Shown in pieces: positions 4,876 through 51,882 of a stretch of 64,000 nt of DNA (positions within the stretch are counted from its first letter, which is position 1; each line of letters opens with the position of its first letter). Position numbers and translations under genes: made by a program. The notes under the pieces were generated by a model. It made no database searches. It saw only the letters and a list, made by a program, of their open reading frames with translations, and was not told where the DNA came from. The DNA comes from Erysipelotrichaceae bacterium (GTDB lineage Bacteria; Bacillota_I; Bacilli_A; RFN20; CAG-826): positions 252 through 64,251 of the forward strand of contig SVBB01000009.1 of assembly GCA_015059105.1 (NCBI GenBank), read 5' to 3'.

Positions 4876-4909
4876 TTTACCTCGCATAATACATATAACA
4901 TAGAGAAAA

Positions 4910-11499: not shown

Positions 11500-11501
11500 A
11501 A

Positions 11502-22815: not shown

Positions 22816-24159
22816 CTATTTTAAGGCAAAAAGCATGTACGAGGGTAAATTAATAAGATTGTCACCATAGCTTAGTGGTTTAGGTTTTACAATATATTTT
22901 TCTCCAACATTTTTGCCAAATTTCATTTTGAATTTGTTTAGCGACGATAAAGATGAAACCTTTTTCGATTTAATCTCTAGAGGCGTTGTCTTTCCATTTA
23001 AATTAATAAGAAAATCAATCTCGTAATTCTTATTTTTTTCATCTTCTTTGTCATTCCAGGAATAATAATATGTTTCAAAGCCGTTTGATGACAACGCTTG
23101 AGCGGTGTAATTTTCAAAAAGCATCCCTAAATTTAAACTCAATTTATCTAACACTATCTTTTGATAAATATCACGAGTGTCGTTTTTATTGCTTGCATAA
23201 ACCATAGAAACAAACAAACCAATATCACAAAAATATAACTTAAACATGGTTTCATCTTTTGTTAATGCAAATCCACCACTAGGATCATTACATTTAAAAA
23301 CAGGTATGACTATTTTTGACTCTTCAAGTTTGTTCAAAGTATTTTTAAACAAAACAGAGTCTGCTCTTTGATCAACCGAAGAGACAATAAATCTAGTTGA
23401 ATGATTGGATAACATATTTGGTATTTGCTTCCAAACCATATAACAAATAGTCCCATATTTATTGTCTATTTTTCTTAAGTCATCTTCATAAAGGTTGATA
23501 ATTCTCTTTTTTTCTTTTTCAGCATCGTAAAAATCATGATTAACCAAATACTCCAACAAAACTTTTGGCATACCTCCAAGAGCTAAATATAGTCTAAAAT
23601 TTCTCAGGAATGATTGATGATATTTTTGGTCAAATGGTTTCCTATTATTGAAGCATTCCTTAAGCAAAGCTGCTTCATGTTCTGCGCCAATAGCCCACAA
23701 GAATTCTTCATAGTCCATTGGATACATTTGAATGGTTTCTTCTTCTGAAGGAATTAAGATGTTTGAAGTGTTTTCTTTAATAGAAACAAGTGATCCAGTT
23801 TCAATATAATGATATCTACCATCAGCAACTAATCTTTTAATTGCCTGTCTTGCTTTTGGGCAGAATTGAATTTCATCAAAAATAATCAAACTGCCAACCG
23901 GCAAATGATGAATTCCTAGATCTAAAAATAATTTAGAGAAAAAATCATCCACACTAAGTAAATTATCAAAATTCTTTTTAAAGTCTTCTGACACTATCGA
24001 AAAATCTATTGTAAAAAAGTCTGGGTATTCATTTTTTCCCAATTCTTCAGCAACAGTTGTTTTGCCGATTCGTCTTGCCCCCTCAATAAGAAGAGCTGAA
24101 TTCCCATTTGATTCCTTTTTCCATTTCAACAAATCTTGATATATTTTTCTCTTAAACAT
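22816..24159 (-). CDS. AAA ATPase with C-terminal PD-(D/E)xK-like module (AAA_14/DUF4143-like), copy 1
   Basis: Walker A IEGARRIGKTT; Walker B IIFDEIQ; C-terminal EIDFLI...PLEIKSKK. Confidence 0.7.
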   Translation of the reverse strand: MFKRKIYQDLLKWKKESNGNSALLIEGARRIGKTTVAEELGKNEYPDFFTIDFSIVSEDFKKNFDNLLSVDDFFSKLFLDLGIHHLPVGSLIIFDEIQFCPKARQAIKRLVADGRYHYIETGSLVSIKENTSNILIPSEEETIQMYPMDYEEFLWAIGAEHEAALLKECFNNRKPFDQKYHQSFLRNFRLYLALGGMPKVLLEYLVNHDFYDAEKEKKRIINLYEDDLRKIDNKYGTICYMVWKQIPNMLSNHSTRFIVSSVDQRADSVLFKNTLNKLEESKIVIPVFKCNDPSGGFALTKDETMFKLYFCDIGLFVSMVYASNKNDTRDIYQKIVLDKLSLNLGMLFENYTAQALSSNGFETYYYSWNDKEDEKNKNYEIDFLINLNGKTTPLEIKSKKVSSLSSLNKFKMKFGKNVGEKYIVKPKPLSYGDNLINLPSYMLFALK

Positions 24160-24950: not shown

Positions 24951-25421
24951 TTTTAGTTGTAGGCATAGACTGTTTCGAGGTAATTCAGACCACAGTTTTT
25001 ACCTCGATATTAGTTTGCCATAATCAAAGTGATTTGCAATATTTGGTCGGAGTGATTTGCAATATTTATTGTCTATCATAAAAACGTAATAGTTGGTAAT
25101 ACTTTTACATAATATACAGAGTATAAGTGGGGTATATCTATGAAAAAGATTACGATAGTCCTATAATATTCAGGTATCTGTTTAACAAATAATGTAATCT
25201 AGCCATGTACTTGGTTAGATTTTCTTTTTATCTAACAAGTATAATCAATATATGCCGTTATCCTGCTTAATATTCATACAGCTTTGACTGTCAGATTTCA
25301 TGCTCAGGCATACGGCTTTTCTTTTAATCGCTAATAGGTTGATTAACGCTTTGACGTTCCAGTAACAGATGATTCGAAAAGATAAGCTGATATGGTTAAT
25401 ACGGCAAGAAAAGGAGGTCTT

Positions 25422-26633
25422 ATGGACTTTTATGTTGGAATCGATGTTAGTAAGTTTAAACACACTGTTGCTATCATTGATCAAAATGGAGAAATTAGAA
25501 AGAAAAGCTTCGATATTTCTAATTCTCGAGAAGGGTTTGATTCACTCTTAAATGAATTAGGTTTGCTCGGAGAAAAAGAGCAAATAAAAATAGGGATGGA
25601 AGCAACTGGACATTATATGAATTGTCTAGTGAGATGCTTAATCTCTAATGGATACCAATTCCAGATTTATAATCCAAGTCTGATTTCTATGTTTCGCGAC
25701 TCTGAATCAGTTAACTTGGCCAAAACGGATAATCTAGATGCGATGTTAATTGCTAAATATGTAGCAACTCATCCATTTACTTCATCCCCACAATTATCTT
25801 ACCTTATTGGAGAGATTCGTAAAATCTCAAGAGCAAAATATTTTCTTTTTGGAGATAAGACAGCTTGCTATAACCATTTACTAAGATATTTAGATGAAGT
25901 GTTTCCAGAATTTGTCTCTTTCTTTAAGAAAAACGAAGATGGAACGAGAAAAAACATGGGTAGAAATCTATTCGAATCACCCACAATTAGATGGCTATTA
26001 AGTGAATATACAACTCCTCAAAAGATGGCAAGGATGAGAAGCGAAACTGGTGAAACGTTAAGAAGAATGTCAAAAGGTTCGATTAGTTTTAATAGATTTA
26101 ATCAGCTAAGAGAACTCGCTAAAAATTCAATCGGTTATTCTACAGAAGTTGATGAACAAATAATTAGAAATCTCGTTACTCAAGTTAGAATCATTGATGA
26201 AGAAATAGAGATGCTTAATGAATTACTAGAACCACTCATGGAACAATTAAACTCGCCAATTCTTACCATTCCTGGAATAGGTATTAATCTTGCCGCAATG
26301 ATTATAAGTGAGATAGGCGATATATCTCGTTTTAGTAATCCAGAAAAACTAATAAAGTTTGCTGGTCTAGACGTTAAGGTTTATCAATCAGGCACGATTA
26401 ATCATAAAGGCCATATTAGAAAAAGAGGATCTCCTATTTTGAGATACGCTCTTGCATTAAGTGTTCAAAAATTAAGAATTCATTCACCTGTTTTTTCAGA
26501 ATATTATTATTCAAAATTAAGACAGGGAAAGGCAACAAATGTCGCGATAATTGCCACAACTAGAAAACTAATTCGAGTCATTTGGAAGATGATGACTACT
26601 AATCAAGTTTTTGAAAACATTAAAAGAGATTAA
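25422..26633 (+). CDS. IS110-family DEDD transposase/recombinase
   Basis: MDFYVGIDVSKFKH, GMEATGHY, DAMLIAKY, IPGIGINLAAMIISEIGDISRFSNPEKLIKFAGLD. RBS AAAGGAGG. Confidence 0.9.
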   Translation: MDFYVGIDVSKFKHTVAIIDQNGEIRKKSFDISNSREGFDSLLNELGLLGEKEQIKIGMEATGHYMNCLVRCLISNGYQFQIYNPSLISMFRDSESVNLAKTDNLDAMLIAKYVATHPFTSSPQLSYLIGEIRKISRAKYFLFGDKTACYNHLLRYLDEVFPEFVSFFKKNEDGTRKNMGRNLFESPTIRWLLSEYTTPQKMARMRSETGETLRRMSKGSISFNRFNQLRELAKNSIGYSTEVDEQIIRNLVTQVRIIDEEIEMLNELLEPLMEQLNSPILTIPGIGINLAAMIISEIGDISRFSNPEKLIKFAGLDVKVYQSGTINHKGHIRKRGSPILRYALALSVQKLRIHSPVFSEYYYSKLRQGKATNVAIIATTRKLIRVIWKMMTTNQVFENIKRD

Positions 26634-34931: not shown

Positions 34932-36185
34932 TTATAAGCCTAACCCCATCACCTTGCTCTCAACATCTCTATAGGATACATATCCTTGTTGACACATTAA
35001 ATCTGCAAACCTTTTTAAGCTATCAATATGCGGTTTTAAATACTTAATTGTTTTTCTTTCATATTTTCTTAATAGAGAATATGTTTTTCTTTCTATTGAT
35101 GCTCTCTTTCTTGGAGTTTCTAAATGCCACTGATTGCTGTTCTCTGCCTCTGTAATGTGGTACCCCAACCCTTTAATCGCACTTCTTTCTAATAATCTAC
35201 GGCAAAAGTCATGTGCTTTTTCTATGTCACTATAAGAACCATAATCATGATTGCCGAATATCATTTTTTCTGCTACATAACCGCCTAAGGCAATCATGAT
35301 TTGTTGTTCTCTTTTTTCTAAAGTCATATATTTCTCTATCACTTCTTCTGTTTCTGTGGTTCCTCCAGATGAAGTGAATTTTGTTCTATAGAATGCCCAG
35401 TTATCTTTGAAGATGCTGGCTAGTAAAGCATGTCCTCCTTCATGTACCGCTACTCGATAGTTATTGATAGTGACAGGAACCTTACCAATATCGTTATGTC
35501 TCACTCTTTCATATGATGTTTCAATATCTTCTTCAGTCACGACTTTATTCTTACATCTTAGATAGACATCATTAACAATGGCTTTTAATTCTGCCCCTGA
35601 TGCACCTTGGCAGTGTTTACTCACAAAATCAAAATTGATATGAGAGACATCAACATCTAAATTAGAGAATACACCTTTGAGTATTTCCGCTCTTGATTTT
35701 CTATCAGGCGTAGATATCTCAATCTTCTTATCAAATCTACCAGGTCTTTTAAGTGGGTCACCGATGCCACGCATTTCATTCGCGGTTGCTAAAACTAAAA
35801 TAGAACCCTTTTGGTCTATACCATCTAATTCTTGTTGCAATGTTCTCTGCTCTTTAGAATCCTTTGGAACGAGAAGTTCTAATTCGTCGATTACGACGAT
35901 TGCAAATTTATCATTCTTTGCTTTTTCAAACACTCCTTGGATTTCTAATGGGGCATTTGCATTCCTACCCTCAATAACATATTTAGGACAATCAAAGTTA
36001 TTGATGAATTCGCGAACAAATAATGTTTTCCCTACCCCAGGTTCTCCATATAACAATATTCCCTTTGGTAAGGCAACATTTGGGTCATTAATAACACTTT
36101 CATCTTCATACCATGACTTGATGAGATTTAGTTCATTTTTGACTTCTTGATAACCATACACATTTTCAAATGTTAATTCTTTCAT
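34932..36185 (-). CDS. soluble FtsH-like AAA+ ATPase fused to an M41 Zn-metalloprotease (no TM segments)
   Basis: GILLYGEPGVGKT, VVIDELE, PGRFDKKIE, HEGGHALLA, GGYVAEKMIFG. Start ATG at 36185 follows AAGAGGAAAT. Confidence 0.8.
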   Translation of the reverse strand: MKELTFENVYGYQEVKNELNLIKSWYEDESVINDPNVALPKGILLYGEPGVGKTLFVREFINNFDCPKYVIEGRNANAPLEIQGVFEKAKNDKFAIVVIDELELLVPKDSKEQRTLQQELDGIDQKGSILVLATANEMRGIGDPLKRPGRFDKKIEISTPDRKSRAEILKGVFSNLDVDVSHINFDFVSKHCQGASGAELKAIVNDVYLRCKNKVVTEEDIETSYERVRHNDIGKVPVTINNYRVAVHEGGHALLASIFKDNWAFYRTKFTSSGGTTETEEVIEKYMTLEKREQQIMIALGGYVAEKMIFGNHDYGSYSDIEKAHDFCRRLLERSAIKGLGYHITEAENSNQWHLETPRKRASIERKTYSLLRKYERKTIKYLKPHIDSLKRFADLMCQQGYVSYRDVESKVMGLGL

Positions 36186-36211
36186 ATTTCCTCTTTCTAT
36201 CAATAAAGAAA

Positions 36212-36234
36212 GCTCCCATCGTTATGATAGGAGC
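36212..36234 (-). terminator. hairpin GCTCCTATC-ataac-GATGGGAGC followed by TTTCTTTATT, about 10 nt before the FtsH-like RBS (attenuator-like)
   Basis: 9 bp on the minus strand, including one G-U. On the plus strand the same position is a C-A mismatch. Confidence 0.5.
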
Positions 36235-36399
36235 ATATAAAGAAGGAAATGTTCCCATCATACAAGCTTTAGCACCTTATCAATATGATAGGTTGCTGGT
36301 GGATCACAGGGCTTGTCCCTAACCACTCTCTTTATGGATGACTTAATTATATATAGGTAATAATATTTTTATTTCATTTATAAGTGAAATGTACATAAA

Positions 36400-36960
36400 T
36401 ATGTTTTTTAATAACCGGACATTCGGTGTCCTCACACTATGTGTTGACATCAACATATACTATAAGCACATTGGAACCCAGTGAATGTCATCTTGCTGAT
36501 GGCTGGGGCCCAACCAAAATAGGAAAATAACATGGGATACTGTGTTATGAGTACAAGACCTATATGGTACCCGGAAGTAAAAAACCGCTTTGGTTGGTGG
36601 CGCAGTACGCTACTCGATGTAAACAACTACTAGGACAGGCACGACAAGAGGCTCTGCAGCAATGCATCCCACGATATGATGTTAACGTGAGAAACTAACA
36701 TCTACGTCCTCAAAGGAAGTGCTCACCTTGACGGATGGTAACATCCTATAACTGACTTAGTAGGTACAAGTAGGGGAACGGTGGATTCATCATTTAGTAG
36801 ATCAATCCATTGCTGAAGCTCCCTGAACGTTGGAAGAGTATTTATCTCTTCCCTAGGATACGGTAGAAATACCCATTGCGGAAGTGTTAGGGTCGCTCCC
36901 TAGTGCTCAGCCCGCCGTGCTAGTGTGTGAATAACAGATTGTAGTAAATACTGTATGACG
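36400..36960 (+). ncRNA. unclassified large structured RNA candidate (strand tentative)
   Basis: ORF-free and G+C-enriched. Many helices, including GNRA-capped stems: TGCA-GCAA-TGCA 36655-66, GGATG-GTAA-CATCC 36733-46, GGTA-GAAA-TACC 36862-73. Long-range helix 36510-18/36589-97. Confidence 0.45.
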
Positions 36961-37209
36961 AAGGTCGCCAATGTCTTTTTTTATATAAAAATAAAAACAT
37001 CCATTAAGGATGTCCATTGCAGATATCCCGAAGGCTTCTGCAAATGCATTGATAACGGTAATGCGGTCCGTGCCGTCTTTTTCTATCCGACGCAAATGCC
37101 TTGTGTCGATATACATACGGCTTGCTAAGTATTCCTGTGTCCAGTGCCTACTTAGTCTTAGGGTTCTAATCGTATCGCCGATTAGACGCGAATCAATAGT
37201 GTTGCTCAT
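36907..37209 (-). CDS. XRE-family HTH protein (the C-terminal 30 aa run into the structured segment)
   Basis: IGDTIRTLRLSRHWTQEYLASRMYIDTRHLRRIEKDG. RBS AAGGAGG. Confidence 0.7.
   Translation of the reverse strand: MSNTIDSRLIGDTIRTLRLSRHWTQEYLASRMYIDTRHLRRIEKDGTDRITVINAFAEAFGISAMDILNGCFYFYIKKDIGDLRHTVFTTICYSHTSTAG
36980..37013 (-). terminator. ACATCC-ttaat-GGATGT followed by TTTTTATTTTTAT, located inside the XRE ORF
   Basis: Canonical intrinsic-terminator shape on the minus strand. Confidence 0.5.
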
Positions 37210-37285
37210 AGCTACCTCCTTATACTGAATGATCTTTTAGGATGTCTATTTGATTCGCTCGGTAGCTTTTCTATGAGCGGGTATT

Positions 37286-37313
37286 ATTCTATATTATATA
37301 TATAATATGTCAA
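37286..37313 (-). promoter_or_regulatory. sigma-70-type promoter TTGACA-16-TAGAAT for the XRE gene
   Basis: Hexamers at 37313-37308 and 37291-37286 (minus strand). Confidence 0.5.
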
Positions 37314-37322
37314 TAGGTTTTA

Positions 37323-38033
37323 TTAATAATTGGTATTATCACGAACCGTATTTGCTATTGATTCCATATCTTGAAGTAAGCCATCATTTTTTGAAATCTC
37401 AAGAACAATTTCATCAAATGCTTTAATCAACGGAAACAACTCTTCAAAAATGTCCAGCTTTACCAAGAAAACCCATTTTTCAAACGGATATCGTTTCTCT
37501 TCCTTCTCTTTCTCAGAAATTGGTGCTTCGTCATAGAAATAAATCGCGCTAATATCCCTTGCTTGTTCAGGGAAGAAATGAATATTACCATTGCCTGAGT
37601 GGCACAAAGCATTCCTAAGATGCTTAAAGAATCCATAAACATTAATGTGGTTACTGTCATAGCAGTTGCTTCTAATATCAATTAAGTTTTTAATTCTTTC
37701 TTTACACTCTCTATAGTGACCAGGATCAGCTTCTTCCAATATTTTATCTTTGAACCTATGCTCGCTAATTGAACTTCTTTTTAAATATTCAACTGGTACA
37801 ACAATCGTGCTAAACATTGAATTAATTAACTGAGTTCCATCAAAGAAGTCATAGATAGGTAATCCCATATCATGTAAACCATATTCTTCATCCACTCTAT
37901 TTAAGTGATTGTTTCGAAGTTCTTCTACGTTTAAATTGCCTTCGTTAATACCATTGTTCACTTCGTTTATAAGTTTGTTATTTAATCTAGTTTGCAAGAT
38001 TAAATCAGAAATCATCGCTCTATATTGTCCCAT
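37323..38033 (-). CDS. HEPN-domain protein (putative RNase)
   Basis: Rx4H motif in FFKHLRNALCHSGNG. Confidence 0.55.
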   Translation of the reverse strand: MGQYRAMISDLILQTRLNNKLINEVNNGINEGNLNVEELRNNHLNRVDEEYGLHDMGLPIYDFFDGTQLINSMFSTIVVPVEYLKRSSISEHRFKDKILEEADPGHYRECKERIKNLIDIRSNCYDSNHINVYGFFKHLRNALCHSGNGNIHFFPEQARDISAIYFYDEAPISEKEKEEKRYPFEKWVFLVKLDIFEELFPLIKAFDEIVLEISKNDGLLQDMESIANTVRDNTNY

Positions 38034-38069
38034 TATTAATCCGTCCTACAAATTGGTTTGTTGATTTTT

Positions 38070-38822
38070 TTATTCTATATCGATATTGCGTTTATACAAC
38101 CATCTCATATGGCTACCTAAAGCATGATGTAAATTTGGAATTTTAATGTAACCATCCCATGGGTAAGTGTTATCTGCAACCATAACATATGGCGGATACT
38201 GCTTAACCGCGTCGGCAATCATATTAAGTGCTCCGCCGCCACCGAAGATATTATAGTTACAACCAAATCCGTGGTCTTGCAATATCAATATATCTGGTAC
38301 CTTGTTGTTATTGGCAAAAAGCGCATCATAAGTAGCTATCGCGTCTGCTTTTAAAGCAATAACAGCAAATCTATCACAACCGTGTTCATCGCCATATTGT
38401 TCTTCTCGTTCAAAGACAAACACTAAACAATAACTGCCGCTAGGATCAACAAAATCTTTCATGGCTTCGATGTCTCTAGGGGTAGGGTGATAATGTGGTT
38501 TCCATCCTTTAGGAGACATCTCTTTTTCTTGATATTCAATAACACCAATATTCCTATACCCCTTCAATGCGTTTTCTTCTGTCAATGCATTTATAATGCT
38601 GTCTTTTTCAACCAAATAATCTACATAAAAGAAAGTATGTGCGTAATGGGCAATATTAAACGTTTTAATTGCTTGTCCGTCATATCCTGAACCAGGATAA
38701 TAAACAATACGGCCAGCATTGAAAATCTCTTCAAAAGTTGGTTTGTCACCTTGTTTATAATTTGCTAACCAAGTAGGTGTTTGTTCCACACAACTACTAA
38801 AAAATTCTGCAATTGTTCTCAT
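38070..38822 (-). CDS. hypothetical protein, possible Rossmann/SAM-MTase-like fold
   Basis: RIVYYPGSGYDG ... TFFYVDY resembles a beta1-Gly-loop followed by an acidic beta2 end. RBS AGGAGA. Confidence 0.3.
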   Translation of the reverse strand: MRTIAEFFSSCVEQTPTWLANYKQGDKPTFEEIFNAGRIVYYPGSGYDGQAIKTFNIAHYAHTFFYVDYLVEKDSIINALTEENALKGYRNIGVIEYQEKEMSPKGWKPHYHPTPRDIEAMKDFVDPSGSYCLVFVFEREEQYGDEHGCDRFAVIALKADAIATYDALFANNNKVPDILILQDHGFGCNYNIFGGGGALNMIADAVKQYPPYVMVADNTYPWDGYIKIPNLHHALGSHMRWLYKRNIDIE

Positions 38823-38915: not shown

Positions 38916-40277
38916 TTATTCTTCGTTATCCTCGTCAGAACCCTCTTCTTTTTCCTTTTTAGCCTTTTCAAATAACTCTTTCATTGTAGGGTTACCATGG
39001 GTGAGTTTTTTGACCGATAAGTCTTGTAACTTGTCATTGGCTAATCTGAGATTGCGGTCTGCACCTAATAGTCCTTCTTTAACTTTATTTAGGTGATCGA
39101 TAGTCTTGTCAATCTCTTCAATAGCTTTGTTGAATCTATCGGTCGCTGCAGAGTAGTTCTTTCCAAATCTTTCTTGGAAATCAATTAACTTATCTTCGAA
39201 GTGAGTGATATCAAGATTTTGATTCTTCACAATCATAAGTTCATTCTTATATCCCGCAGATTGCTTTGCGGCGTTATATAGTAATGAGATGATTGGTAAG
39301 AAACACTGTGGACGAACCACATACATCTTTGGGTATCTGTATGATACATCAACAATACCCGCGTTGAAGTAGTCATTATCTGGTTCAAGGGTGGACACGA
39401 GCACTGCATATTCACAACCCTTCTTCTTTCTATCCTCATCGAGTTTCTTATAGAAATCTTCGTTCTTATGTTTAGTCGCAGTTTCATCCGCTTCATTCTT
39501 CATTTCAAACATGATGGAAATGAGCTCCGCTCCTTCATCAGTTTTATCTCTGAAGACGAAGTCACCTTTTGTGCCTTCTACAACATCATTATCTTTTTCA
39601 AAATATGCATTTGGATAAGATGTCATTCTTATAGAGTTGAAAGAATTGAGACAGTGTTGTTCTAATGTTTCTCCTAATAACTTAGTAGAGCTTTTAGCCT
39701 TGAGGTCTTTATAGAAGGCAATCTGCTCATCCTTCATCTTCATGTCTTCTTTATATTTATCTTTTAAAGATTGTTCTTTTAAGACATATTCTTTTTCTTT
39801 AGAAGCGATGTCATTGTTGAGTTCTAAGATAACCTTTTCTTTTTCATTGACCGCTTTATTAATCTCACCTTCAATGCTTTGTTTGAGCAAGACGATTTCC
39901 GATTTGAGTCTAGCGATATCTTCTTTCAGTCTATCTTTCTCTCTTTCTTGATCGTTCATCTTGATGAGCAAGTCTTTGCCATATCCCTCATTGAGTTTAT
40001 CGATTTCATTCTTCTTTTCGATATCTTTTAATTTGATATCGGATTCAAGATTTTGAATCTTTTCTTTTAATTCATTGATAGTCTTTTCTTGGCTATTCTT
40101 CGTTTGTTCTTTGACGAGCTCTAATTGGGTTTTGTTTTGTTTTTCAATTTCTTCCACTCTTCGGGAGAGTTCTTTTTCAAATTCGTTATTTTTCACTTGT
40201 GAAAGGATTTCATCATATGTTGAATCATCAACAGAGAATACTTCACCACATTTTGGACACTTAATTTTTGCCATCAT
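38916..40277 (-). CDS. DUF2130-like protein (N-terminal Zn-ribbon, long coiled coil, C-terminal globular domain)
   Basis: [16 protein letters not shown], a K/E-rich coiled coil, then a conserved C-terminal half. Confidence 0.55.
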
Positions 40278-41071
40278 TAGTTGCCTCCATACTTTTCTTT
40301 AAATTCATCAATTACCTCTAGCATTCTTTCTGGTAATTTGTTTCTCACTGCTTTAACAAGTTCAGCAGGTATGTCACCGTAATATGCTTCTGCAATCGCA
40401 CAGCTCATCGCGGCAGTAGTATCACAATCCCCACCAATACTAATCGTTGTTCTTAAACAGTCTTCAAAACTGTTAGAGATTAAGAAGCAATATAGTGCTT
40501 GAGGAACACTGGTCTGACAAATCTCAGAATCGTGCTTATATGTTCTTCTTAACTCTTCATAATCCAGGGTAGCGATTTCTGGGTACTGGCTAAGTGCATA
40601 TTCTCTAATGTCTTTTTTATCACATTTCTCTAACGCCATCGCAATGCATCTCGCCACTACAAATGCGCCCTTTAATCCTTCAGGGTGGTTATGGGTACAA
40701 GCCGTTGCTAAATGTGTATAATTAAGCAAATCATCAGTGTTACCAGCATATGCCCAGCCTACGCCTGAGATGCGCATCGCACTACCATTACCACAGCTGT
40801 TATATGGTTTTGGATTAACTTCATAAATCCAGCTTATAAACCTATTACCATATCCAGCATATGGGTATCTTCTAGCCCACTTTTGCAAATATTTCGCTGC
40901 AGAAGTGGTATTTTTTTCATTTTCATGTAATACCCAATCCATCAAAGCAATGGTTAATACAGTGTCATCAGTAAACTTGCTTTCTTTACTTACTAGTTCA
41001 AAGTCTTTTGTCTTAATATTGTTAAATTCAAATCTGCTTCCAACAACATCACCAATAATTGCACCTATCAT
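40277..41071 (-). CDS. ADP-ribosylglycohydrolase family protein
   Basis: [41 protein letters not shown]. Confidence 0.85.
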
Positions 41072-41271
41072 AATTGCTTTCCTCCTCCTGCTATATATTC
41101 TCTAATTGCTTTTTTAATAAAATTGCTCATGTTACCTGATGCTTTTAAGGCATCGATTATATCCCGATCTTTATCATAACGGCAATTAATTGCAACTGTC
41201 TTAGATACAGGTCTTATGTACGATATTTTGTACCTATAAATATCATCGTTTGCCACGTCTATATTCCTCAT
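41068..41271 (-). CDS. small RHH-like protein
   Basis: DRDIIDALKASGNMSNFIKKAIREYI. ATGA overlap with the next gene. Confidence 0.45.
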   Translation of the reverse strand: MRNIDVANDDIYRYKISYIRPVSKTVAINCRYDKDRDIIDALKASGNMSNFIKKAIREYIAGGGKQL

Positions 41272-41528: not shown

Positions 41529-41933
41529 TTAGAAAACGTCAATATTTGATTGGCTATATACCCCATCATCACAAATGACTTTAGCGAATGGCTCGCCTTT
41601 TAGTATTTTGTTATATTGTTCAAGTGTGCCGTCAAAGATGACGAGTTTGCTATTGCTTATATCAGAGAACGCACATTGTTCAATAAGCTTCAACGAATTT
41701 GGTAAAATCACATGTTTTAGGTTTTTACATCCACTAAAAGCGTCTTCTCCGACTTCAACCACTTTGTTTAAGTTGAGACTTCTAATATCTAAGTTGTCTT
41801 TGAAAGCTTTTTTACCAATTATTTCAACACAATCTGGAACTGTTACATTAGATCTGTTTCCTGCATAACTAACAAGAGTTTTATTCTCAATGATAAATTG
41901 ACAATCTATTTCATTCAAAATTCTATATTTCAT
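41529..41933 (-). CDS. small BspA-type LRR protein
   Basis: VPDCVEIIGKKAFKDN..LNLNKVVEVGEDAFSGCKNLKHVILP. Confidence 0.65.
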   Translation of the reverse strand: MKYRILNEIDCQFIIENKTLVSYAGNRSNVTVPDCVEIIGKKAFKDNLDIRSLNLNKVVEVGEDAFSGCKNLKHVILPNSLKLIEQCAFSDISNSKLVIFDGTLEQYNKILKGEPFAKVICDDGVYSQSNIDVF

Positions 41934-42206: not shown

Positions 42207-43505
42207 CTATTTAATAACCTTAAGCCCTTTCTTTTTATCCATCTCAGGAGATACTAGTCCATCTTTTTGTAGACGTTCAAACACTCTATTTGCCCTATTA
42301 AAACCAAGGGAACATTCTCTTTGTATTTTACTTACTGAAACATATTCTTGTTCTAATACCCAGTTCTTCACTTTTTCATATGCTTCATCGTTATCAATAA
42401 TAGGAGCAGGATTAGCGGATAATGGTTCTACAGTTTTATATTTTTCTTTTAACTCCCCTATTACTTCTCTAACTTCCGTTGATTTGATATATGGAGCCTG
42501 TAATCTTAATAAGTCCTTACGGGAAATAGTGGGAGATTTAAGAAGCATATCACCAAGTCCCCCTAGATATTCCGCGCATGAATCATTAATGGCAAAGATA
42601 GAATCTGTATCTGTCGCGGTTGCAAAACACACGACAGTCGGGAAATTATCTTTCATCGCTTTACTTAACGCATTTGTATCGATTCTCTGCATAGAAAGAA
42701 TGATATGAATACCAGAGGCTCTTGCTTTTTGAAGCAAAGATAAAAGTGGTCCTTTCACATCATTGACGGATTCATATAAGTCCATATATTCATCAATCAC
42801 AACGATGATATAAGGTAGTTTGTCTTTATGAGTCTCGTTATATTCTTTGATAGAACATACTTCTTCCTTTTCAAATAAGACATATCTATCATTCATCTTT
42901 TGAACAAGGGAATATAAGGCTTCTAATGCTTCTTTCCCTTTATTGATAATTGGTCTATATAGATGTGGTAATTCCTTATATGGATGCATCTCCACATATT
43001 TAGGGTCGATTAAAACAAACTGCACATCACTAGGTGTGTTTCTTTTAATTAATGTGGTTAATAAGCTATGTAAGAAAATAGACTTACCACTTCCAGTCGT
43101 GCCGGTCACTAATATATGTGGAAGAACACATAAATCTTCTTGAATGAGTTTACCCTTGATATCAACCCCAAAAGGAATAGACATTGGATTGTTATTAAGT
43201 TGGTCATAGATATCATCATAATTAACGAAATCACGATGTTCATTGACGATTTCTATCCCACTATAAGGTTCATTAGGAATAGAAGGAACAAAACGGAGAT
43301 AAGAAAGACCGAGTCTCACTCGTAAGTCAGGAATGATACTAGAGAGGTTTTTCACTTTTTCATCTTTTTTATATTTGATATTGAATCTCGTATATGTAGG
43401 ACCAGATATATAGCCCACACATTCCGCGAGGACATTCATATCTTTAAATGTTTTATTGATTAAAGTTTTTCTTTCTTCGTTAACTATTTTATTATCCTGT
43501 CTCAT
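42207..43505 (-). CDS. FtsK/SpoIIIE-family DNA translocase, soluble, with C-terminal gamma-like wHTH
   Basis: VTGTTGSGKS, IVVIDEYMDL, IHIILSMQR, VSVSKIQRECSLGFNRANRVFERLQKDGLV. The likely start is MRQDNK, after AGGGGGA. Confidence 0.8.
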   Translation of the reverse strand: MRQDNKIVNEERKTLINKTFKDMNVLAECVGYISGPTYTRFNIKYKKDEKVKNLSSIIPDLRVRLGLSYLRFVPSIPNEPYSGIEIVNEHRDFVNYDDIYDQLNNNPMSIPFGVDIKGKLIQEDLCVLPHILVTGTTGSGKSIFLHSLLTTLIKRNTPSDVQFVLIDPKYVEMHPYKELPHLYRPIINKGKEALEALYSLVQKMNDRYVLFEKEEVCSIKEYNETHKDKLPYIIVVIDEYMDLYESVNDVKGPLLSLLQKARASGIHIILSMQRIDTNALSKAMKDNFPTVVCFATATDTDSIFAINDSCAEYLGGLGDMLLKSPTISRKDLLRLQAPYIKSTEVREVIGELKEKYKTVEPLSANPAPIIDNDEAYEKVKNWVLEQEYVSVSKIQRECSLGFNRANRVFERLQKDGLVSPEMDKKKGLKVIK

Positions 43506-43701
43506 AACGATCCCCCTATTTATATAATAACTATTCTTCTTCTGTGACTTTTTTATTTCTTCTAAAACTACCTTTACCTTTCTTCGGTTTGAAGACTGTT
43601 CCTCTAGTATTTTTCTGCACTTCAAAATGAAGCTTGTTTGGTAGCTTAGTTTGGTCAACTTTAATATGAATAGTTTCTTTTTCTACCATATATAAATAAT
43701 A

Positions 43702-44872: not shown

Positions 44873-46195
44873 CTATAAAAACATAATTAAATAAATAGGT
44901 AGAGTTACAAGATTATTTTCTTTTTTTACTATGTTCTTATTCCCAAAAACAAATCCAAAAGGAATTTTATAATTACCATTAGGGTCCACCAGTTTAGGAA
45001 TTGCTCTAAAATTCGTCTGATCTTTTCCTGACTTTATTTCAATAGGCAAAATAGAAAGATTGTTGTAATCATTGATTAAGAAATCAACCTCACCAACTTT
45101 TTTACTATCAAAATAATATAGTTCATGACCGTGAGCGATCAATTCCATTGCCGCTGCAGTTTCATACGCAGAGCCTAAATTAACTCCTTTATCTTGGTTT
45201 AAAACCGCATCAATGCTATTTTTGTATAACACATTAGTTAATATGCCAACATCGTTATAATAAAGCTTAATAAGATTCTTGCTACTAGATTCCGTTAAAG
45301 GAAATACAGGATTGCTAACTGCTTTGACTGCATGAGCAACACCCGAAGACACTAGGTAATCAAATTCATCTTCGTATTTATTAAGGGTGTCTTTTTTATT
45401 ATCATCAATTTTATTTGCTTGAATTCTTTTAACGTTGTTCCCCATTCGGGAAGCCATCATTTCATAAATTCTAGTTATTTTTAATTTGTGCTCTAAATCA
45501 TATTGCGAGCAGTCGTCTTTATAATAAGTGTACGTTAATGAATGTACTCCTCTCATTTCCATGACATTTTTATTGGCCACAAATTGTTTTACTGCATCAG
45601 GAAGGCCGCCAGAAAGAAGATACTCTTTAAATCTCGAAAGGAGAACCGAATGAACAACATCAGTGATGGGTTCTAATTTATCAAAGCATTTTTTGACGTA
45701 TTCAATCACATCCTTGCCAACATGACTTGCCCATAAAAACTCCTCAAAATCCATAGGAAACATTTTGACTTCTTTAATTGAACCCATTGGAATAAATGTA
45801 TGCTTAAGCGTAACACCAAGAAGAGAACCACTAACTATATAAGAATACTTTTTCTCTTTATTAAGTGGTTTTAACATCGATATCAAATGCGGGTATACCT
45901 GGATTTCATCTAAAAAGATAATCGTGTCTTCTCTTGTGCCTAGTTTGTCGCCAAAAAGTGATGATACCACAAGATAGAACTTATCGGCGGTATTAACTTT
46001 AGCGTGTTCAAAATTTCTTTCGCCATCAAAATCATCTTTGAGGTTTATTTCAATGTAGTTTTTGAATTTTGCTTTAGCTAGTTTATTGATGATATATGTT
46101 TTACCAATTTGTCTAGCGCCCTCAATAATGAGTATTGTTTCTTTGTCACTATCCAAATATTCATTGATTGTTGTTTCAATTTTTCTTTTAAACAT
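44873..46195 (-). CDS. AAA ATPase with PD-(D/E)xK-like module (AAA_14/DUF4143-like), copy 2
   Basis: IEGARQIGKTY, IFLDEIQ, EVDFLI...PIEIKSGK. Confidence 0.7.
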   Translation of the reverse strand: MFKRKIETTINEYLDSDKETILIIEGARQIGKTYIINKLAKAKFKNYIEINLKDDFDGERNFEHAKVNTADKFYLVVSSLFGDKLGTREDTIIFLDEIQVYPHLISMLKPLNKEKKYSYIVSGSLLGVTLKHTFIPMGSIKEVKMFPMDFEEFLWASHVGKDVIEYVKKCFDKLEPITDVVHSVLLSRFKEYLLSGGLPDAVKQFVANKNVMEMRGVHSLTYTYYKDDCSQYDLEHKLKITRIYEMMASRMGNNVKRIQANKIDDNKKDTLNKYEDEFDYLVSSGVAHAVKAVSNPVFPLTESSSKNLIKLYYNDVGILTNVLYKNSIDAVLNQDKGVNLGSAYETAAAMELIAHGHELYYFDSKKVGEVDFLINDYNNLSILPIEIKSGKDQTNFRAIPKLVDPNGNYKIPFGFVFGNKNIVKKENNLVTLPIYLIMFL

Positions 46196-46976: not shown

Positions 46977-48812
46977 TTATAGCGCAACATCGCCATCGCT
47001 GCAGTGGATGACTGTCGCTGGTATATCATCTCCCCATTTATTAGGATCTGGAGTATCAACTTTTTCCCATTCCGCTTTTGTTCCAGCATAATTGATAGTT
47101 GTTAAAGCAACGCATCCATCAAAGACAAAAGATTTAATCGCTTCAATGCTTTTTGGCAATGTGACAGTTGTTAAAGATGAGCAATTATAGAAAGCTTCCA
47201 TTTCGATAGTTTTAACACCTTCAGGAATGGCAATTGTGGTTAAACTAGTACATTCTTCGAACGTATTATATTGAATAGTGTCAACTCCACTACCAAGATT
47301 AACAGTTGTTAGTCCCTCACAATATTGAAAAGCATTTCTTCCAATTGATTTAACACCGTCGGGGATTGTAATCGAAGTCAATGAGCCAAACCACCTACAC
47401 GCATCTTGATTAATGAATTTACAACCATTATCAATACTAAAAGTTGTCGCTGATTTATCTTTAATACCCATCAAAATCAAACATGGGTTTTCTTCACTAC
47501 CTAAGTAGAGACCATTATTCACCTCATTACATATTACTTGCTTATAACTCCCATACATATCAAAAACATAATTCCCAAAATAGGCGAGTTTTGAACCATT
47601 TTCGAAAACGAAATTTTTGAGGTTATCACAGTTAAAAGCATAATAATCTATCGAAATAACACTGCTTGGAATCGTGATAGATTCGAGGTTATCGCAACCA
47701 CTAAAGGCACCTTCACAAATATATTCGCAGTTGCTATTGATGTTATAAGTATTCTTCGAGGAATCACTAGTCCTTATAAATGCAAAATATGGATTGCCTT
47801 CTTTTCCTAAATATAAGCCATTCTCATATTTGTTAAGTTTTAGGCTACTACACTCACTAAAAGCAAAACTCCCAATATGTTCAGTAGAAGCAGGAAGATT
47901 GATGGTTTCTAGCGAGGAACAGCCTCGGAAAGCATCCTCATAAATATGAGTTATACCATTTGGTAGGGTGACCGTTTTTAATTTATAACAATCTTCAAAT
48001 AGGCCCTCTGAAATAGTTGTAACCTGATTAGGGATTCTGATAGAGGTAAGACTCTCACAGCTTTCAAAAGCACAGTAATCAATGGTAGTAACACTATTTG
48101 GAATCTTAATACTCTCTAACGATTCACAAGAATCGAAAGCACGTCTACCAATAGTTACTAATGTATTTGGTAAACTGACATTCTTCAAACCCGTGCAGTC
48201 GCGGAAAGAATAAACGCTAAGAGAGGTGATTGTATCAGGGACAAAGACATATTCAACCTTTAAACAATCTTCAAAAGCACCTGTTCTACGACCATTTTCA
48301 TCATATGTTACATATAATTCTTTAACAGGTAATCCCTCATATGATTCTGGAATCGCGACGCGTCCTTCAATATCAGTGTCCTTCGCTTTCACGCTGTAAT
48401 ATGTCTCATCCGTGGATTTGATGAAACTCAGTTTTTCTGGAGTTCCCACTTGGGGAATCCTTTTATGTTCAGCGTAGTCGCATACAGTGCATGTACGCGT
48501 AAGCTCACCATCCTTTTCACTTTCTGGAGGGGTGGTCTCCTTCCATTCAGAAAAAGTATGAAGGTCTTTATCTATCTTGACCATATGCCCACACGTGGAC
48601 TCATGCCAATGCGCTTCTTCGTCATACGTCCATTTATCGCTGAAAGTGTGCTGATGAACTGAAGTGCTACTACTCTCACTTGAAGAAGAAGCCGGTTGGG
48701 ATGAATCCGGTTGGGATGAAGATGGAGTAACAGTTCCTCCAGAAGAACACGCTCCTAATGATAAAACTAATGCTGAAAATGCAATTGATAATAATTTAAA
48801 CTTATTGATCAT
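46977..48812 (-). CDS. lipoprotein with BspA-type LRR repeats
   Basis: MINKFKLLSIAFSALVLSLGAC lipobox after RBS GAGGAGG. S-rich linker, then LRR_5 units. Confidence 0.8.
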   Translation of the reverse strand: MINKFKLLSIAFSALVLSLGACSSGGTVTPSSSQPDSSQPASSSSESSSTSVHQHTFSDKWTYDEEAHWHESTCGHMVKIDKDLHTFSEWKETTPPESEKDGELTRTCTVCDYAEHKRIPQVGTPEKLSFIKSTDETYYSVKAKDTDIEGRVAIPESYEGLPVKELYVTYDENGRRTGAFEDCLKVEYVFVPDTITSLSVYSFRDCTGLKNVSLPNTLVTIGRRAFDSCESLESIKIPNSVTTIDYCAFESCESLTSIRIPNQVTTISEGLFEDCYKLKTVTLPNGITHIYEDAFRGCSSLETINLPASTEHIGSFAFSECSSLKLNKYENGLYLGKEGNPYFAFIRTSDSSKNTYNINSNCEYICEGAFSGCDNLESITIPSSVISIDYYAFNCDNLKNFVFENGSKLAYFGNYVFDMYGSYKQVICNEVNNGLYLGSEENPCLILMGIKDKSATTFSIDNGCKFINQDACRWFGSLTSITIPDGVKSIGRNAFQYCEGLTTVNLGSGVDTIQYNTFEECTSLTTIAIPEGVKTIEMEAFYNCSSLTTVTLPKSIEAIKSFVFDGCVALTTINYAGTKAEWEKVDTPDPNKWGDDIPATVIHCSDGDVAL

Positions 48813-49019
48813 AAAATGCCTCCTCGGTATATATAGTAATTGTACCAAAAAACCTCCTTTATAACAAAAGGAGTGGACAATTCCCAACACCGATATAACG
48901 AAAAAGCATATGTGAACCTACTCGGTAGTTGAACAACCGAGGATTCCCATTCGGTGTCCTAAAAACTTATCTATTTTTCTTCTTAAATAATCCATATCAT
49001 GGCCTTGCGAATACGTATT

Positions 49020-49469: not shown

Positions 49470-50762
49470 TTACAATCCCAACATACTGATTGGAACAATG
49501 TAGACATCCCCTTCTTTTTTAGAAGACCCATGACTTGTAAGTATCATTTTGAAAGCAGGCATTTTTAAGCCATTTTCTTTCATCTTCTTTTCGAATTTAT
49601 TTAAAGAAGAAATTCCATCTTTAATATTTTTATCACTCGCAATTTTAATTTCAATTGCACCATATTCTCCGTTGTTAAGTTTTAAGATTGCATCTACTTC
49701 TAAACCATTGCTATCTCTATAATGCTTTAATTCTCCATTAAAAGAATCAGCATATATTGATAAATCTCTAACTGCCATATCTTCAAAAAAGAAACCAAAA
49801 GATTTCAAATCATTTAATAAGTCAGCAGGTGTGATACCTAATGCAGATGTTGCAATAGAAGTATCAACAAAATGATGTGTTGGGGTAGTTCTTACAGCAA
49901 CACTAGATCTTAAATTAAGATTCCAGGCAGGCATATCATAGATAATGAAAAGATCTTCTAGTGTTTTTTTATAAGTTAAAAATGTATCATCATCTAATTT
50001 GCTTCTCTCTCCTGATTCTAATATATCCTTAATCATTAATGTGTTTTTAGCTTCAGTAGATATATTTCTTGCAAAAGACTTAAGTATTAGTTTTAAAAGC
50101 TCAATATTTTTATTTTTTAAGAACTCAGCAAATTCATCATTCTCATCTTCAATAGTAAATAAGCCTTCATAGTAGTTGTTAGTAACATCAAGAGCATATT
50201 CTTTTTCGCTTTTCACCGCGATAGGCCAACCACCTCTACAAATAATATGAGCAATATCCATTAATGAAACAGGATTATGTTGACCATAGGTAGATGTAAA
50301 TTTATAGTTCTTATCAAATAGACCCAATAAAGAAATAACCCCTGTAGATTCTTTTGATTCTAATAAAGAGAATGGTTTTAATTTTAAAGATGTTATTCTT
50401 CCGGCAGCAGAATTTTGAATTTTAGATGAATCGACTGGTGTGGTGCTTCCAGTTAATATATATTTTCCAAATTGATAATCTTTATCTAAATCATCTTTTA
50501 TGATATTCCATATTTCGGGAGCTTTTTGCCATTCATCAACTAAATGAGGGTTGTCTCCTTTTAAAGTTGAATAAGGATCGGCGTTAGCAATTTCAATATC
50601 GTTAGTGGTCTTCAACGTTGTTACTGATTTTGCAAACTCTTCGCATAAAGTGGATTTGCCACAAAACTTAGGGCCACTAACAACCACACATCCAGATGAT
50701 TTAAGTTTCCTTTTTAATGAATTCTCTGCAAGACGGGGAATATAATCTTTTATTTTTGCCAT
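49470..50762 (-). CDS. AAA ATPase with PD-(D/E)xK-like module (divergent), copy 3
   Basis: VSGPKFCGKST, HLVDEWQ, EVDAIL...AIEIKIAS. The likely start is MAKIKDY. Confidence 0.65.
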   Translation of the reverse strand: MAKIKDYIPRLAENSLKRKLKSSGCVVVSGPKFCGKSTLCEEFAKSVTTLKTTNDIEIANADPYSTLKGDNPHLVDEWQKAPEIWNIIKDDLDKDYQFGKYILTGSTTPVDSSKIQNSAAGRITSLKLKPFSLLESKESTGVISLLGLFDKNYKFTSTYGQHNPVSLMDIAHIICRGGWPIAVKSEKEYALDVTNNYYEGLFTIEDENDEFAEFLKNKNIELLKLILKSFARNISTEAKNTLMIKDILESGERSKLDDDTFLTYKKTLEDLFIIYDMPAWNLNLRSSVAVRTTPTHHFVDTSIATSALGITPADLLNDLKSFGFFFEDMAVRDLSIYADSFNGELKHYRDSNGLEVDAILKLNNGEYGAIEIKIASDKNIKDGISSLNKFEKKMKENGLKMPAFKMILTSHGSSKKEGDVYIVPISMLGL

Positions 50763-50812
50763 AACAAACAACCTTATATATATTTTATATAGACACAAAT
50801 AAAAATCAATCG

Positions 50813-50940: not shown

Positions 50941-51882
50941 TTAGAATTTCATCCAACATTCTTTTAAGAATGACTTAATAGAAGTTAAATCCTTATCCTC
51001 ATAATAATTAACTAGATGCTTTTTAAAATTGTCTACTTTGCTATAGTCGATAACTAAGAGCCCTTGGCCTTTAGAGATAAGATAATGATTCGCATACACT
51101 ACCGCAGTTCTTTTGTTACCATCATTATAGATTTGAGTCTTCATGACATATAAGCAGAGCTCAATAGCTTTATCAATGTCATCCAAACTTGAGGCTAACA
51201 AGTCTTTGATATCTTGCTTAACTTTATCTTCAAAAGGAATCGGAGGAATGTATGATGAACCTCCAATGGTGACTGGTACCCCTCTAATTCTTCCTCCATC
51301 TTGAATAGCTAATAATCCTTCATTAACTAATCTAGCAATATAGGAGGCCAAATAATAATCGCTTGGTGCTTGGATGACATCTTTATCTAAGATGAACTGC
51401 CATGCGTGTTTTAAATTAATGATTTTTTGAACATCTTCCGCTTTTACATTTTTTACAATTCCATTATCAATAATTGCTTCTGTATCTGGAAAGGTGGTTC
51501 CAACCCCTTCTAACACAGCTTGATCATAAATAATCTTCTTCATATTAGCGCGAGCAAAATCTAGATTAAGAGCAATTCTATCTGATAATTCTTCTTCCTT
51601 ATAACCAAGTAACGTTAATTGTTTTTCAAGCTGCCTAATTTCCTTGCGAAGAGATTTAGTTTCAACATTATTTCTTAATAAAGTGCTATATAGTTCTTCG
51701 CTATATTCGCCAACATAAGTAGATTTAACTTTATCTAATTCTCTTTTACGGACATATAGGTATTTCTTTTCTGATATAGTTTTTATTTCTGGAGTTCCAT
51801 CATATGGTAAAAGATTTAAACGAGCTTGTAATTCTGCGCGCCTATTTAACAATTCTTGAATTTGGATAAATGTATTTTTCAT
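50941..51882 (-). CDS. Fic/Doc-family protein with degenerate active-site motif
   Basis: QIYNDGNKRTAVVYANHYL replaces HxFx(D/E)GNxR. An AVLEGVGTTFPDTEAII-type N-terminal segment is present. Confidence 0.5.
   Translation of the reverse strand: MKNTFIQIQELLNRRAELQARLNLLPYDGTPEIKTISEKKYLYVRKRELDKVKSTYVGEYSEELYSTLLRNNVETKSLRKEIRQLEKQLTLLGYKEEELSDRIALNLDFARANMKKIIYDQAVLEGVGTTFPDTEAIIDNGIVKNVKAEDVQKIINLKHAWQFILDKDVIQAPSDYYLASYIARLVNEGLLAIQDGGRIRGVPVTIGGSSYIPPIPFEDKVKQDIKDLLASSLDDIDKAIELCLYVMKTQIYNDGNKRTAVVYANHYLISKGQGLLVIDYSKVDNFKKHLVNYYEDKDLTSIKSFLKECWMKF

Follow-up and report, generated by a model that had tools for sequence, protein, structure and literature searches.

A SAM-I-type riboswitch predicted ahead of a conserved soluble FtsH-like protease in a mosaic chromosomal region of an Erysipelotrichaceae bacterium

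The stretch of DNA analysed here, 64,000 nucleotides (nt) of contig SVBB01000009.1 from an Erysipelotrichaceae bacterium (the window), encodes on its minus strand a soluble relative of the FtsH protease, in which an AAA+ ATPase domain is joined to a peptidase domain of the M41 family. We consider it probable that a riboswitch of the S-adenosylmethionine (SAM) I type gates the transcription of this protease and that the two form a conserved unit within a mosaic, hypervariable chromosomal stretch. The pairing of riboswitch and protease is conserved and was not reported in the literature searched. The riboswitch has a new regulon and the FtsH relative a new architecture; both are otherwise of known kinds. 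A first-pass annotation, made from the sequence alone, had combined the protease with four further elements (a structured RNA segment, an XRE regulator, a HEPN protein and a Rossmann-like protein of 250 amino acids (aa)) into one candidate defence module immediately upstream of hsdRMS. The elements of the riboswitch-protease unit are listed below, with positions counted within the window.

34932-36203, minus strand: gene of the soluble AAA+/peptidase-M41 (FtsH-like) protease as called (423 aa); 34932-36185 from the likely start (417 aa); Pfam and homologue alignment
36251-36343, minus strand: putative SAM-I-type aptamer devoid of helix P4, with P1, P2 (with a K-turn), P3 and a putative loop-J3/4 pseudoknot (AAGC/GCUU); Rfam and comparative alignment
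36202-36234, minus strand: predicted intrinsic terminator of the expression platform, GCUCCUAUC-AUAAC-GAUGGGAGC, then UUUCUUUAUU (hairpin 36234-36212)
36346-36388, minus strand: promoter-like elements of the riboswitch-protease transcript, TATAAT at 36351-36346 and TTCACT-17-TATTAT at 36388-36360

The riboswitch in the protease leader

The Rfam search assigned the protease leader to the SAM-I family (S-box, RF00162), with a minus-strand match at 36340-36213 that scored 55.6 bits against a gathering threshold (GA) of 44.4 and ended approximately 10 nt before the ribosome-binding site (RBS) of the protease gene. The leader resembles other members of this family in passing the GA, in its P1, K-turn-bearing P2 and P3 helices, and in a terminator and an antiterminator that share the 3' strand of P1; in the antiterminator alternative, the 5' arm of the terminator pairs with this strand (36250-36258, GAUGGGAAC). 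A SAM riboswitch was present on the gene's strand in the protease leader of all seven non-redundant loci with a protein identity of 57% or more to the window protease, namely the window itself, L081, L082, L084 (plus L085 and L086), L087, L093 and L094. The RF00162 scores of the six sister protease loci were 45.3-48.9 bits; an additional locus, L101, reached 54.2 bits, and a custom covariance model built from eight riboswitch copies gave 100-111 bits on each copy. Directly 5' of the aptamer, a -10-like box was found at every one of the seven loci (TATAAT in two, near-matches such as CATAAT and TATAAA in the others). Small open reading frames (ORFs) separate the riboswitch from the protease gene in some of the loci, one of 232 aa in L081 and L093 and one of 60-67 aa in L082 and L087; neither occurs in the window.

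The alignment of the seven leaders carries most of the structural evidence. Helices P1-P3 and the terminator were paired in 98% of the cells, compared with 31-52% when the alignment was slid as a control, and nine pairs had changed on both sides. None of the shuffled alignments matched the observed pairing, the number of double changes or the covariation score; in further pair types, however, the leaders did not surpass the shuffles. The terminator was 100% paired, with two compensatory pairs and a U-run after it, and the antiterminator was 98% paired. In L094, changes in the 5' strand of P1 are compensated in the first copy of the AUGGG sequence, which points to the classical OFF architecture, with SAM stabilising P1 and the terminator being formed. 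An ON-switch model, with a full four-helix aptamer in which the 3' arm of the terminator serves as a strand of P1, was rejected, as the P1 changes of L094 covary with the first AUGGG copy and not with the second. The minimum free energy (MFE) folds computed with ViennaRNA did not tell the riboswitch states apart consistently. The nucleotides of the core that contact SAM in the Thermoanaerobacter tengcongensis structure, reportedly solved by Montange and Batey in 2006, look conserved by eye.

By sequence and covariation, a predicted SAM-OFF transcriptional switch thus precedes the protease. When SAM is plentiful, P1 would form and leave the 5' arm of the terminator free, so that the terminator (36234-36212) would fold and transcription would stop before the protease gene. 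With SAM in short supply, the 3' strand of P1 would instead pair with the 5' arm of the terminator, and the resulting antiterminator would allow RNA polymerase to read into the gene.

The leader differs from the typical SAM-I riboswitch in two respects. The four-way junction formed by P1-P4 is not found, since P4 is essentially gone: in the covariance model alignment of L084 it is cut to 1 nt at the place of 18 model positions, and the comparative alignment gave the same result for all eight copies. This arrangement is reminiscent of SAM-I/IV-type cores. Moreover, the downstream genes encode the AAA/M41 protease, small ORFs, winged helix-turn-helix (wHTH) proteins and an operon of the 250-aa family, and not proteins of methionine, cysteine or SAM metabolism or transport. 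In Clostridioides difficile, SAM-I riboswitches were found only before genes of methionine and SAM metabolism and transport (PMC11477304). In L101, a sister genome that shares its sample with L085, a P4-less SAM riboswitch and terminator (L101:7263-8744) head an operon encoding proteins of 56 aa and 114 aa, a homologue (71% identical) of the 250-aa protein of the window, a 98-aa protein, a DUF6946 protein and the products of further genes. Two riboswitch copies stand in tandem in L094 (L094:5672-6338), the first before a gene for a 91-aa FtsK-gamma-like wHTH protein and the second before the protease gene, which is followed by a gene for a wHTH-macro protein. The P4-less riboswitch is therefore predicted to control several non-metabolic genes in this lineage. 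Full-text literature searches returned no paper tying SAM riboswitches to FtsH-like proteases or to phage defence.

Just 5' of the riboswitch in L084 there is also a non-coding stretch of 211 nt (L084:7640-7850) that appears by eye to be richer in G+C than its flanks. It had no match in Rfam, and its fold was modestly better than those of shuffled sequences (z = -2.1).

A soluble family of FtsH-like proteases

Translation of the protease probably starts at the ATG at 36185, upstream of which lies the candidate RBS AAGAGGAAAT. The protein matched the Pfam families AAA (1.5e-19) and Peptidase_M41 (2.4e-13), with an HEGGH motif, and covered positions 157-593 of the FtsH equivalog model TIGR01241 (598 positions) at 167.7 bits, compared with a cut-off of 600. 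The Pfam search gave no match to FtsH_ext (PF06480), and the transmembrane (TM) helices and periplasmic N-terminus are absent. The first-pass description of a TM-less AAA+/M41 protease with an HEGGH motif was borne out by these results.

The order of the two domains is that of FtsH, with an AAA+ domain of the classical clade (Walker A and B, sensor-1 Asn, RPGRFD) and an M41 domain in which an Asp lies downstream of HExxH. Across the protease clade, Walker A (GxxGxGKT), Walker B (DE), the sensor Asn, the RPGRFD arginine fingers, HE(G/A)GH and the Asp of GSxSD are invariant; the window protein keeps the RPGRFD fingers, HEGGH and the Asp of GSYSD. Besides the N-terminal TM helices and FtsH_ext, the alignment with true FtsH revealed three clade-wide deletions: 6 residues of pore loop 1, which take out its aromatic residue (FVEMFVG), 11 residues of pore loop 2, and the strand IIPRT (5 residues) of the protease domain. 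The family further differs from FtsH in its own length of approximately 415 aa, in its predicted control by a riboswitch and in its location in defence islands. The loss of the pore loops is an argument against bulk protein turnover. We suggest that the protease is an ATP-driven oligomer or ring that may cut particular accessible targets and would not thread its substrates in the manner of FtsH.

At least about 60 sequence clusters of relatives of about 415 aa (31-68% identical) were collected, all of them from metagenomes or from metagenome-assembled genomes named "Bacilli bacterium". An exhaustive search of 1.8 billion representatives added about 67 more of 395-485 aa, nearly all of which have the pore-loop deletions. 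True FtsH proteins (about 600 aa) are about 30% identical to the window protease over the cytosolic part. The sequences thus delineate what appears to be a distinct, conserved soluble clade and a sizeable unannotated family. A truncated housekeeping ftsH, which the first-pass annotation had named as one finding that would undo its proposal, was ruled out, as the protein is full-length, conserved within its soluble clade, about 30% identical to FtsH and far below the equivalog cut-off. A profile scan of genome contigs with the clade alignment gave no close relative, and generic patterns retrieved mainly housekeeping FtsH and CDC48. The scan of metagenome contigs yielded one short locus only (L093), and no relative was found among the IMG/VR viral contigs; a look-up of contigs encoding the window protein itself gave none.

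The AAA domain bears a weak resemblance to IetA (PADLOC, 1e-14, 50-53 bits; NCBIfam IteA, 48 bits against a cut-off of 510). The ATPase-plus-protease logic is shared with IetAS, a defence or toxin-antitoxin system consisting of the ATPase IetA and the subtilisin-like protease IetS. Here, however, ATPase and protease are fused, the protease is a zinc-dependent M41 and not a serine S8 enzyme, the family cut-off is missed by a wide margin, and no S8 protease or IetS partner was found near the protease gene.

Conserved anchors and variable neighbours

The neighbourhood of the protease was compared between the window and nine other non-redundant protease loci by tblastn, with every protein encoded in the window between hsdS and 46 kb as a query. 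The neighbouring features to which the comparison refers are as follows.

36453-36987, plus strand: ROOL RNA (RF03087), 206.1 bits against a GA of 99.1, model positions 1-574 of 574, conserved 3' core present
36907-37209, minus strand: XRE/HTH_3 gene, 100 aa, helix-turn-helix (HTH) at residues 14-63 (Pfam)
37286-37313, minus strand: strong sigma-70-type promoter of the XRE gene, TTGACA-16-TAGAAT, 11 of 12 positions matching
37323-38033, minus strand: HEPN gene of the pEK499_p136 family (PF18736), 236 aa, 29.9 bits against a GA of 26.6
38070-38822, minus strand: gene of the 250-aa protein, no family match (ORF and AlphaFold2 model)
38916-40277, minus strand: DUF2130 gene
40277-41071, minus strand: ADP-ribosylglycohydrolase (ARH) gene, DraG/Tri1-like, with GDxxG and GGDxDT motifs
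41068-41271, minus strand: 67-aa gene, possibly ribbon-helix-helix-like at its C-terminus
11502-14117, minus strand: AddB gene
8152-11538, minus strand: AddA gene

The protease and ARH were the only query proteins that recurred among the nine other loci, and homologues of the HEPN, XRE, 250-aa and DUF2130 proteins were found in none of them. At the locus of a HEPN homologue (L099), the neighbours are unrelated to those of the window, with an ARH gene 7 kb from the HEPN gene; neither this family in the 250-aa loci L101 and L102 nor the 250-aa family in L099 was detected. The neighbourhood-conservation check proposed in the first-pass annotation for the protease and the HEPN protein consequently speaks against its grouping of five elements into one module, the components never being co-localised in the other loci examined. 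Its individual gene descriptions fared better: the XRE gene has its own TTGACA-16-TAGAAT promoter (37313-37286), the HEPN protein carries the RNALCH motif and exceeds the GA of PF18736, and the 250-aa ORF is present as described. The position just upstream of hsdRMS is physically correct and is not conserved. In three sister genomes (L081, L084 and L087) addBA follows the protease gene at a distance of 0.1-1.8 kb; in the window the distance is about 21 kb. The intervening stretch of about 21 kb (14118-34931) contains hsdRMS, an IS110 transposase gene (25392-26633, plus strand) and, among others, genes for an alpha/beta hydrolase, AAA_14/DUF4143 ATPases, BspA-type leucine-rich repeat (LRR) proteins and Sel1, DUF4116 and PDDEXK_4 proteins. 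It looks inserted, and the adjacency of the protease to hsdRMS is incidental.

On the other side of the protease, the stretch from the ARH gene to the riboswitch was different in every genome compared. Given variable stretches on both sides and the anchors that are kept, we read the region as a mosaic and not as one system. In this lineage, the ARH gene and the riboswitch-protease unit resemble anchors that border variable regions, and the ROOL RNA and the XRE, HEPN, 250-aa and DUF2130 genes behave as cargo.

An ARH gene was located near the protease gene in 7 of the 10 non-redundant loci, with 44-54% identity and with varied order, distance and context. In two further loci (L082 and L094) a wHTH-macro gene stands directly 3' of the protease gene and no ARH gene is present; neither was found near the protease in the remaining one (L097). 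A compact tRNA-adjacent island in L091 has the order 200-aa gene, protease, 68-aa gene, ARH. The usual downstream partner in the sister loci is a conserved protein of about 150-200 aa, the gene of which overlaps the protease stop codon, or the wHTH-macro protein. For the partner of about 150 aa, the macro gene and the leader ORFs of the sister loci no homologue was found in the window, and those other than the macro protein that were tested had no Pfam family. The combination recalls the DarG, DarG3, Tri1 and DraG conflict systems, as the neighbouring ARH is DraG/Tri1-like and, in two loci, its place is taken by macro proteins; antitoxins of the ARH type have been described for DarHTG. The recurrent partner is here the AAA/M41 protease, and no ADP-ribosyltransferase toxin gene was found beside the ARH gene in any locus examined.

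In the window, the start and stop codons of the 67-aa, ARH and DUF2130 genes (38916-41271) overlap in an operon-like manner. In the DUF2130 protein, a zinc ribbon at the N-terminus is accompanied by a coiled coil and a D...ExK-like motif, and another DUF2130 gene opens the defence island of L097. Winged helices of the FtsK-gamma type recur in these neighbourhoods: in a 483-aa FtsK/SpoIIIE-like protein of the window (42207-43658, minus strand), fused N-terminally to the macro proteins (L082:9267-10031; L094:7653-8405), and as the C-terminal part of a 498-aa AAA/M41 paralogue (L088:14010-15506) that adjoins the ARH gene in L088 and L095. Tandem paralogues of the window (3586-4887 and 4968-6293, minus strand) are 31-34% identical to an uncharacterised protein of 449-454 aa encoded upstream of ARH in L081, L084 and L087.

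The gap of about 700 nt between the XRE and protease genes, which the first-pass annotation had regarded as one structured element of the minus strand, does contain structured RNA, but of two unrelated Rfam families, ROOL on the plus strand and SAM-I on the minus strand. The idea of an RNA-gated protease survives in the form of the predicted SAM riboswitch, and the large RNA, ROOL, lies on the other strand and is not the regulator of the protease. ROOL is antisense to all neighbouring genes, divergent from the riboswitch and convergent with the XRE gene, and we regard it as an independently transcribed RNA gene of the nanocage type, assigned to its family by the full-length model match with the conserved 3' core. 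ROOL RNAs form octameric nanocages and have been reported from phages, prophages and tRNA islands (PMC5737381, PMC12286853). The present copy has a different setting, a variable region of the defence type in which an XRE gene and a riboswitch stand on its two sides: no tRNA was found within the 64-kb window, and no phage structural domain was seen among the window neighbours examined (most ORFs of the window). A blastn search of INPHARED with ROOL gave no match, and a ROOL motif pattern failed to carry over to other ROOL copies. The unrelated island of L088, L089, L095 and L096 has a ROOL of its own at 3 kb from the protease gene; this copy, too, is antisense to that gene and convergent with one for a small HTH protein, and neither the flanks nor the HTH proteins of the two islands are homologous. 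The proximity of ROOL to the protease in two island types is a lead and not a finding, because the sampled loci are all protease-centred.

The 3' end of ROOL and the XRE ORF share the last 81 nt of the latter, which reads through its own terminator-like hairpin (37015-36995). The ORF extends for about 30 codons beyond the hairpin, into the antisense of the conserved 3' end of ROOL (36907-37015). In the +1 frame there is a stop at ATATAA right after the hairpin, and the natural stop may have been lost by a homopolymer indel or by the insertion of ROOL; no direct or inverted repeats were found flanking the ROOL/XRE insert.

The HEPN protein is assigned to the pEK499_p136 family by its score and by its invariant Rx4H motif, RNALCH (R140-H145), which is identical in all four family members compared (the window protein and three homologues). 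It differs from other HEPN proteins of this kind in belonging to a very small subfamily (three homologues); neither an MNT nor an antitoxin partner was identified, and nothing links it to the protease of the window. The 250-aa gene and the HEPN gene probably share an operon in the window. The 250-aa protein had no match in Pfam or NCBIfam and belongs to a broad family (158 matches, all hypothetical); no relative was found in the IMG/VR scan or, by tblastn, in PLSDB or INPHARED. Its AlphaFold2 model (pLDDT 93.4) is of the alpha/beta type, with beta1 followed by a Gly-rich loop (YPGSGxDG) and beta2 by an invariant Asp. The comparison with the PDB gave no significant match (best E 0.07, TM-score about 0.3), the weak top matches being class-I SAM-dependent methyltransferases. 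A Rossmann-like fold, as the first-pass annotation had named it, would be a plausible reading of this model. The window copy of the gene has no riboswitch of its own, as just 93 nt lie upstream of it and these contain a terminator.

The neighbours of the protease clade are for the most part defence genes, in several independent contexts (the window, L081, L082, L088 and L097), in agreement with the first-pass placement of the protease among such genes. They comprise the Type I restriction-modification (R-M) system in the window, GmrSD and Eco57I in L081, Eco57I in L082, toxin-antitoxin pairs and PDC-S06 (E 1e-147) in L088, and, in L097, a methyltransferase (MTase) with PbeA (2e-194) and PbeC (1e-141) and an Nhi/AbiO-like helicase. 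The gene order in L097:375-9239 is Nhi/AbiO-like helicase, Type II MTase, PbeA, 72-aa gene, PbeC, 127-aa gene and then a riboswitch-less protease that is 36% identical to that of the window; a gap of 845 nt after the protease gene has no called gene and no Rfam match. This island looks like a methylation-associated Pbe/Dnd-like defence system. Dispersed over the window there are three paralogues of AAA_14/DUF4143 ATPases on the minus strand (22816-24159, 44873-46195 and 49470-50798), several BspA-type LRR genes (21819-22691, 41529-41933 and 46977-48890) and a Fic gene (50941-51882). The window as a whole has the look of variable accessory DNA.

Possible roles of the riboswitch-protease unit

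If the switch operates as predicted, the protease would be made at low SAM and would act on specific targets with, or alongside, ADP-ribosyl hydrolases (ARH or the wHTH-macro protein). With lower confidence than for the unit itself, the protease may be a stress or defence effector that is switched on by SAM depletion. Several observations weigh against our main reading of the region, with its predicted riboswitch-protease unit. The ligand-free MFE fold favours the terminator in the window and in L101, so that read-through may be low. The aptamer has no P4, and most loci barely exceed the Rfam GA (45-56 bits compared with 44.4). No riboswitch was found in the distant clade members L088 and L095 (49-50% identity), L091 (46%) and L097 (36%), which implies that SAM control is lineage-specific and not intrinsic to the protease family. 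The seven riboswitch loci are not fully independent, as they come from related genomes with shared synteny, and linkage was assessed on ten loci only; within the group at 65% identity, the linkage to ARH could partly be inherited synteny. The window has no downstream partner gene, with a spacer of 416 nt before hsdR. Finally, SAM binding, control of termination and proteolysis are all activities that we infer from sequence.

What the unit is for can be explained in more than one way. A physiological response to SAM or methionine starvation, in which a lineage-specific housekeeping protease removes or recycles particular proteins, for instance to spare SAM, or removes restriction enzymes once methylation falls behind (restriction alleviation), is in our view possible but rather unlikely. 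It would agree with the known SAM-I regulon of methionine and SAM homeostasis, with the conserved position beside addBA in five loci, with the frequency of restriction genes among the neighbours and with the possibly SAM-binding 250-aa family under the same riboswitch type in L101. On the other hand, no riboswitch operon examined contains a methionine or SAM metabolic gene, the loss of the pore loops speaks against bulk turnover, and the linkage to ARH and macro proteins is left unexplained. Type I restriction enzymes require SAM for cutting, hence no alleviation would be needed at low SAM. An unlikely alternative places the trigger in the phage, with the riboswitch as a sensor of infection: SAM-degrading phage enzymes, by which methylation-dependent defences are disabled, would lower SAM and de-repress the protease, which would block the phage or arrest the cell, with ARH or the macro protein reversing phage ADP-ribosylation or restraining the system. 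The OFF-type riboswitch, with expression at low SAM, is in line with this proposal, as are the SAM-dependent R-M and methylation systems adjoining the clade in the window, L081, L082 and L097 together with other defence candidates, the weak IetA-like character of the AAA domain and the presence of the same riboswitch type before other non-metabolic island operons; the literature searches found no paper connecting SAM riboswitches with defence. The case for it is purely associative, and ordinary methionine starvation would trigger the protease too. Five of the seven riboswitch loci occupy one conserved chromosomal position beside addBA, in the manner of a core gene, and the distant members in defence islands have no riboswitch; the absence of relatives from IMG/VR, INPHARED and PLSDB is neutral either way. 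A more elaborate version, which we hold to be quite unlikely, describes the riboswitch as an immune sensor: SAM depletion, for example by phage SAM-degrading anti-restriction enzymes, would de-repress the protease, which with its ARH partner would form a back-up effector for methylation-dependent defences, and the P4-less riboswitch would wire island operons (wHTH, 250-aa family) into a low-SAM alarm regulon, with ROOL as a co-resident.

The remaining explanations concern the neighbours of the unit. A functional tie between ROOL and the protease/ARH islands, for instance as a cage or decoy RNA that interplays with the convergent small HTH regulator, seems improbable. Two island types that are unrelated (the window and L088/L089/L095/L096) do have ROOL at a distance of 3 kb or less from the protease, each time with the same orientation towards the protease and the HTH gene, and the window has neither tRNAs nor phage structural genes, unlike the contexts in the literature. 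Only 2 of the 10 loci have this arrangement, however, and the flanks and HTH proteins share no homology; since every locus was chosen around the protease, the closeness is partly an effect of sampling, and both elements may merely share variable islands. The five-part abortive-infection module of the first-pass annotation, with the Rossmann-like protein, the HEPN RNase, the XRE regulator, the large RNA and the protease gated by RNA or by a regulator, is highly improbable. Its parts are adjacent and, except for ROOL, co-oriented, the HEPN and XRE domains are typical of toxins and regulators, and the HEPN homologue 7 kb from ARH in L099 may occupy the same variable region. Against it stand the absence of the HEPN, XRE and 250-aa genes from all nine other protease loci, the separate occurrence of HEPN and 250-aa homologues elsewhere, the separate promoters and terminators between the units and the opposite strand of ROOL.

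The conserved riboswitch-protease unit bears on several wider questions. With its copy of ROOL, the window contributes a new member of this RNA family from a defence-type setting that is free of tRNAs and not that of a phage, a useful data point for an RNA with solved nanocage structures. A protease that has its ATPase and zinc sites and no threading loops raises the questions of how its substrates are selected and cut and of why it travels with enzymes that remove ADP-ribose. The SAM-I riboswitch is a textbook regulator of methionine and SAM genes, and its occurrence before a protease and other non-metabolic island genes indicates a wider use of metabolite riboswitches. It suggests that the level of SAM may be read as a signal of stress or infection.

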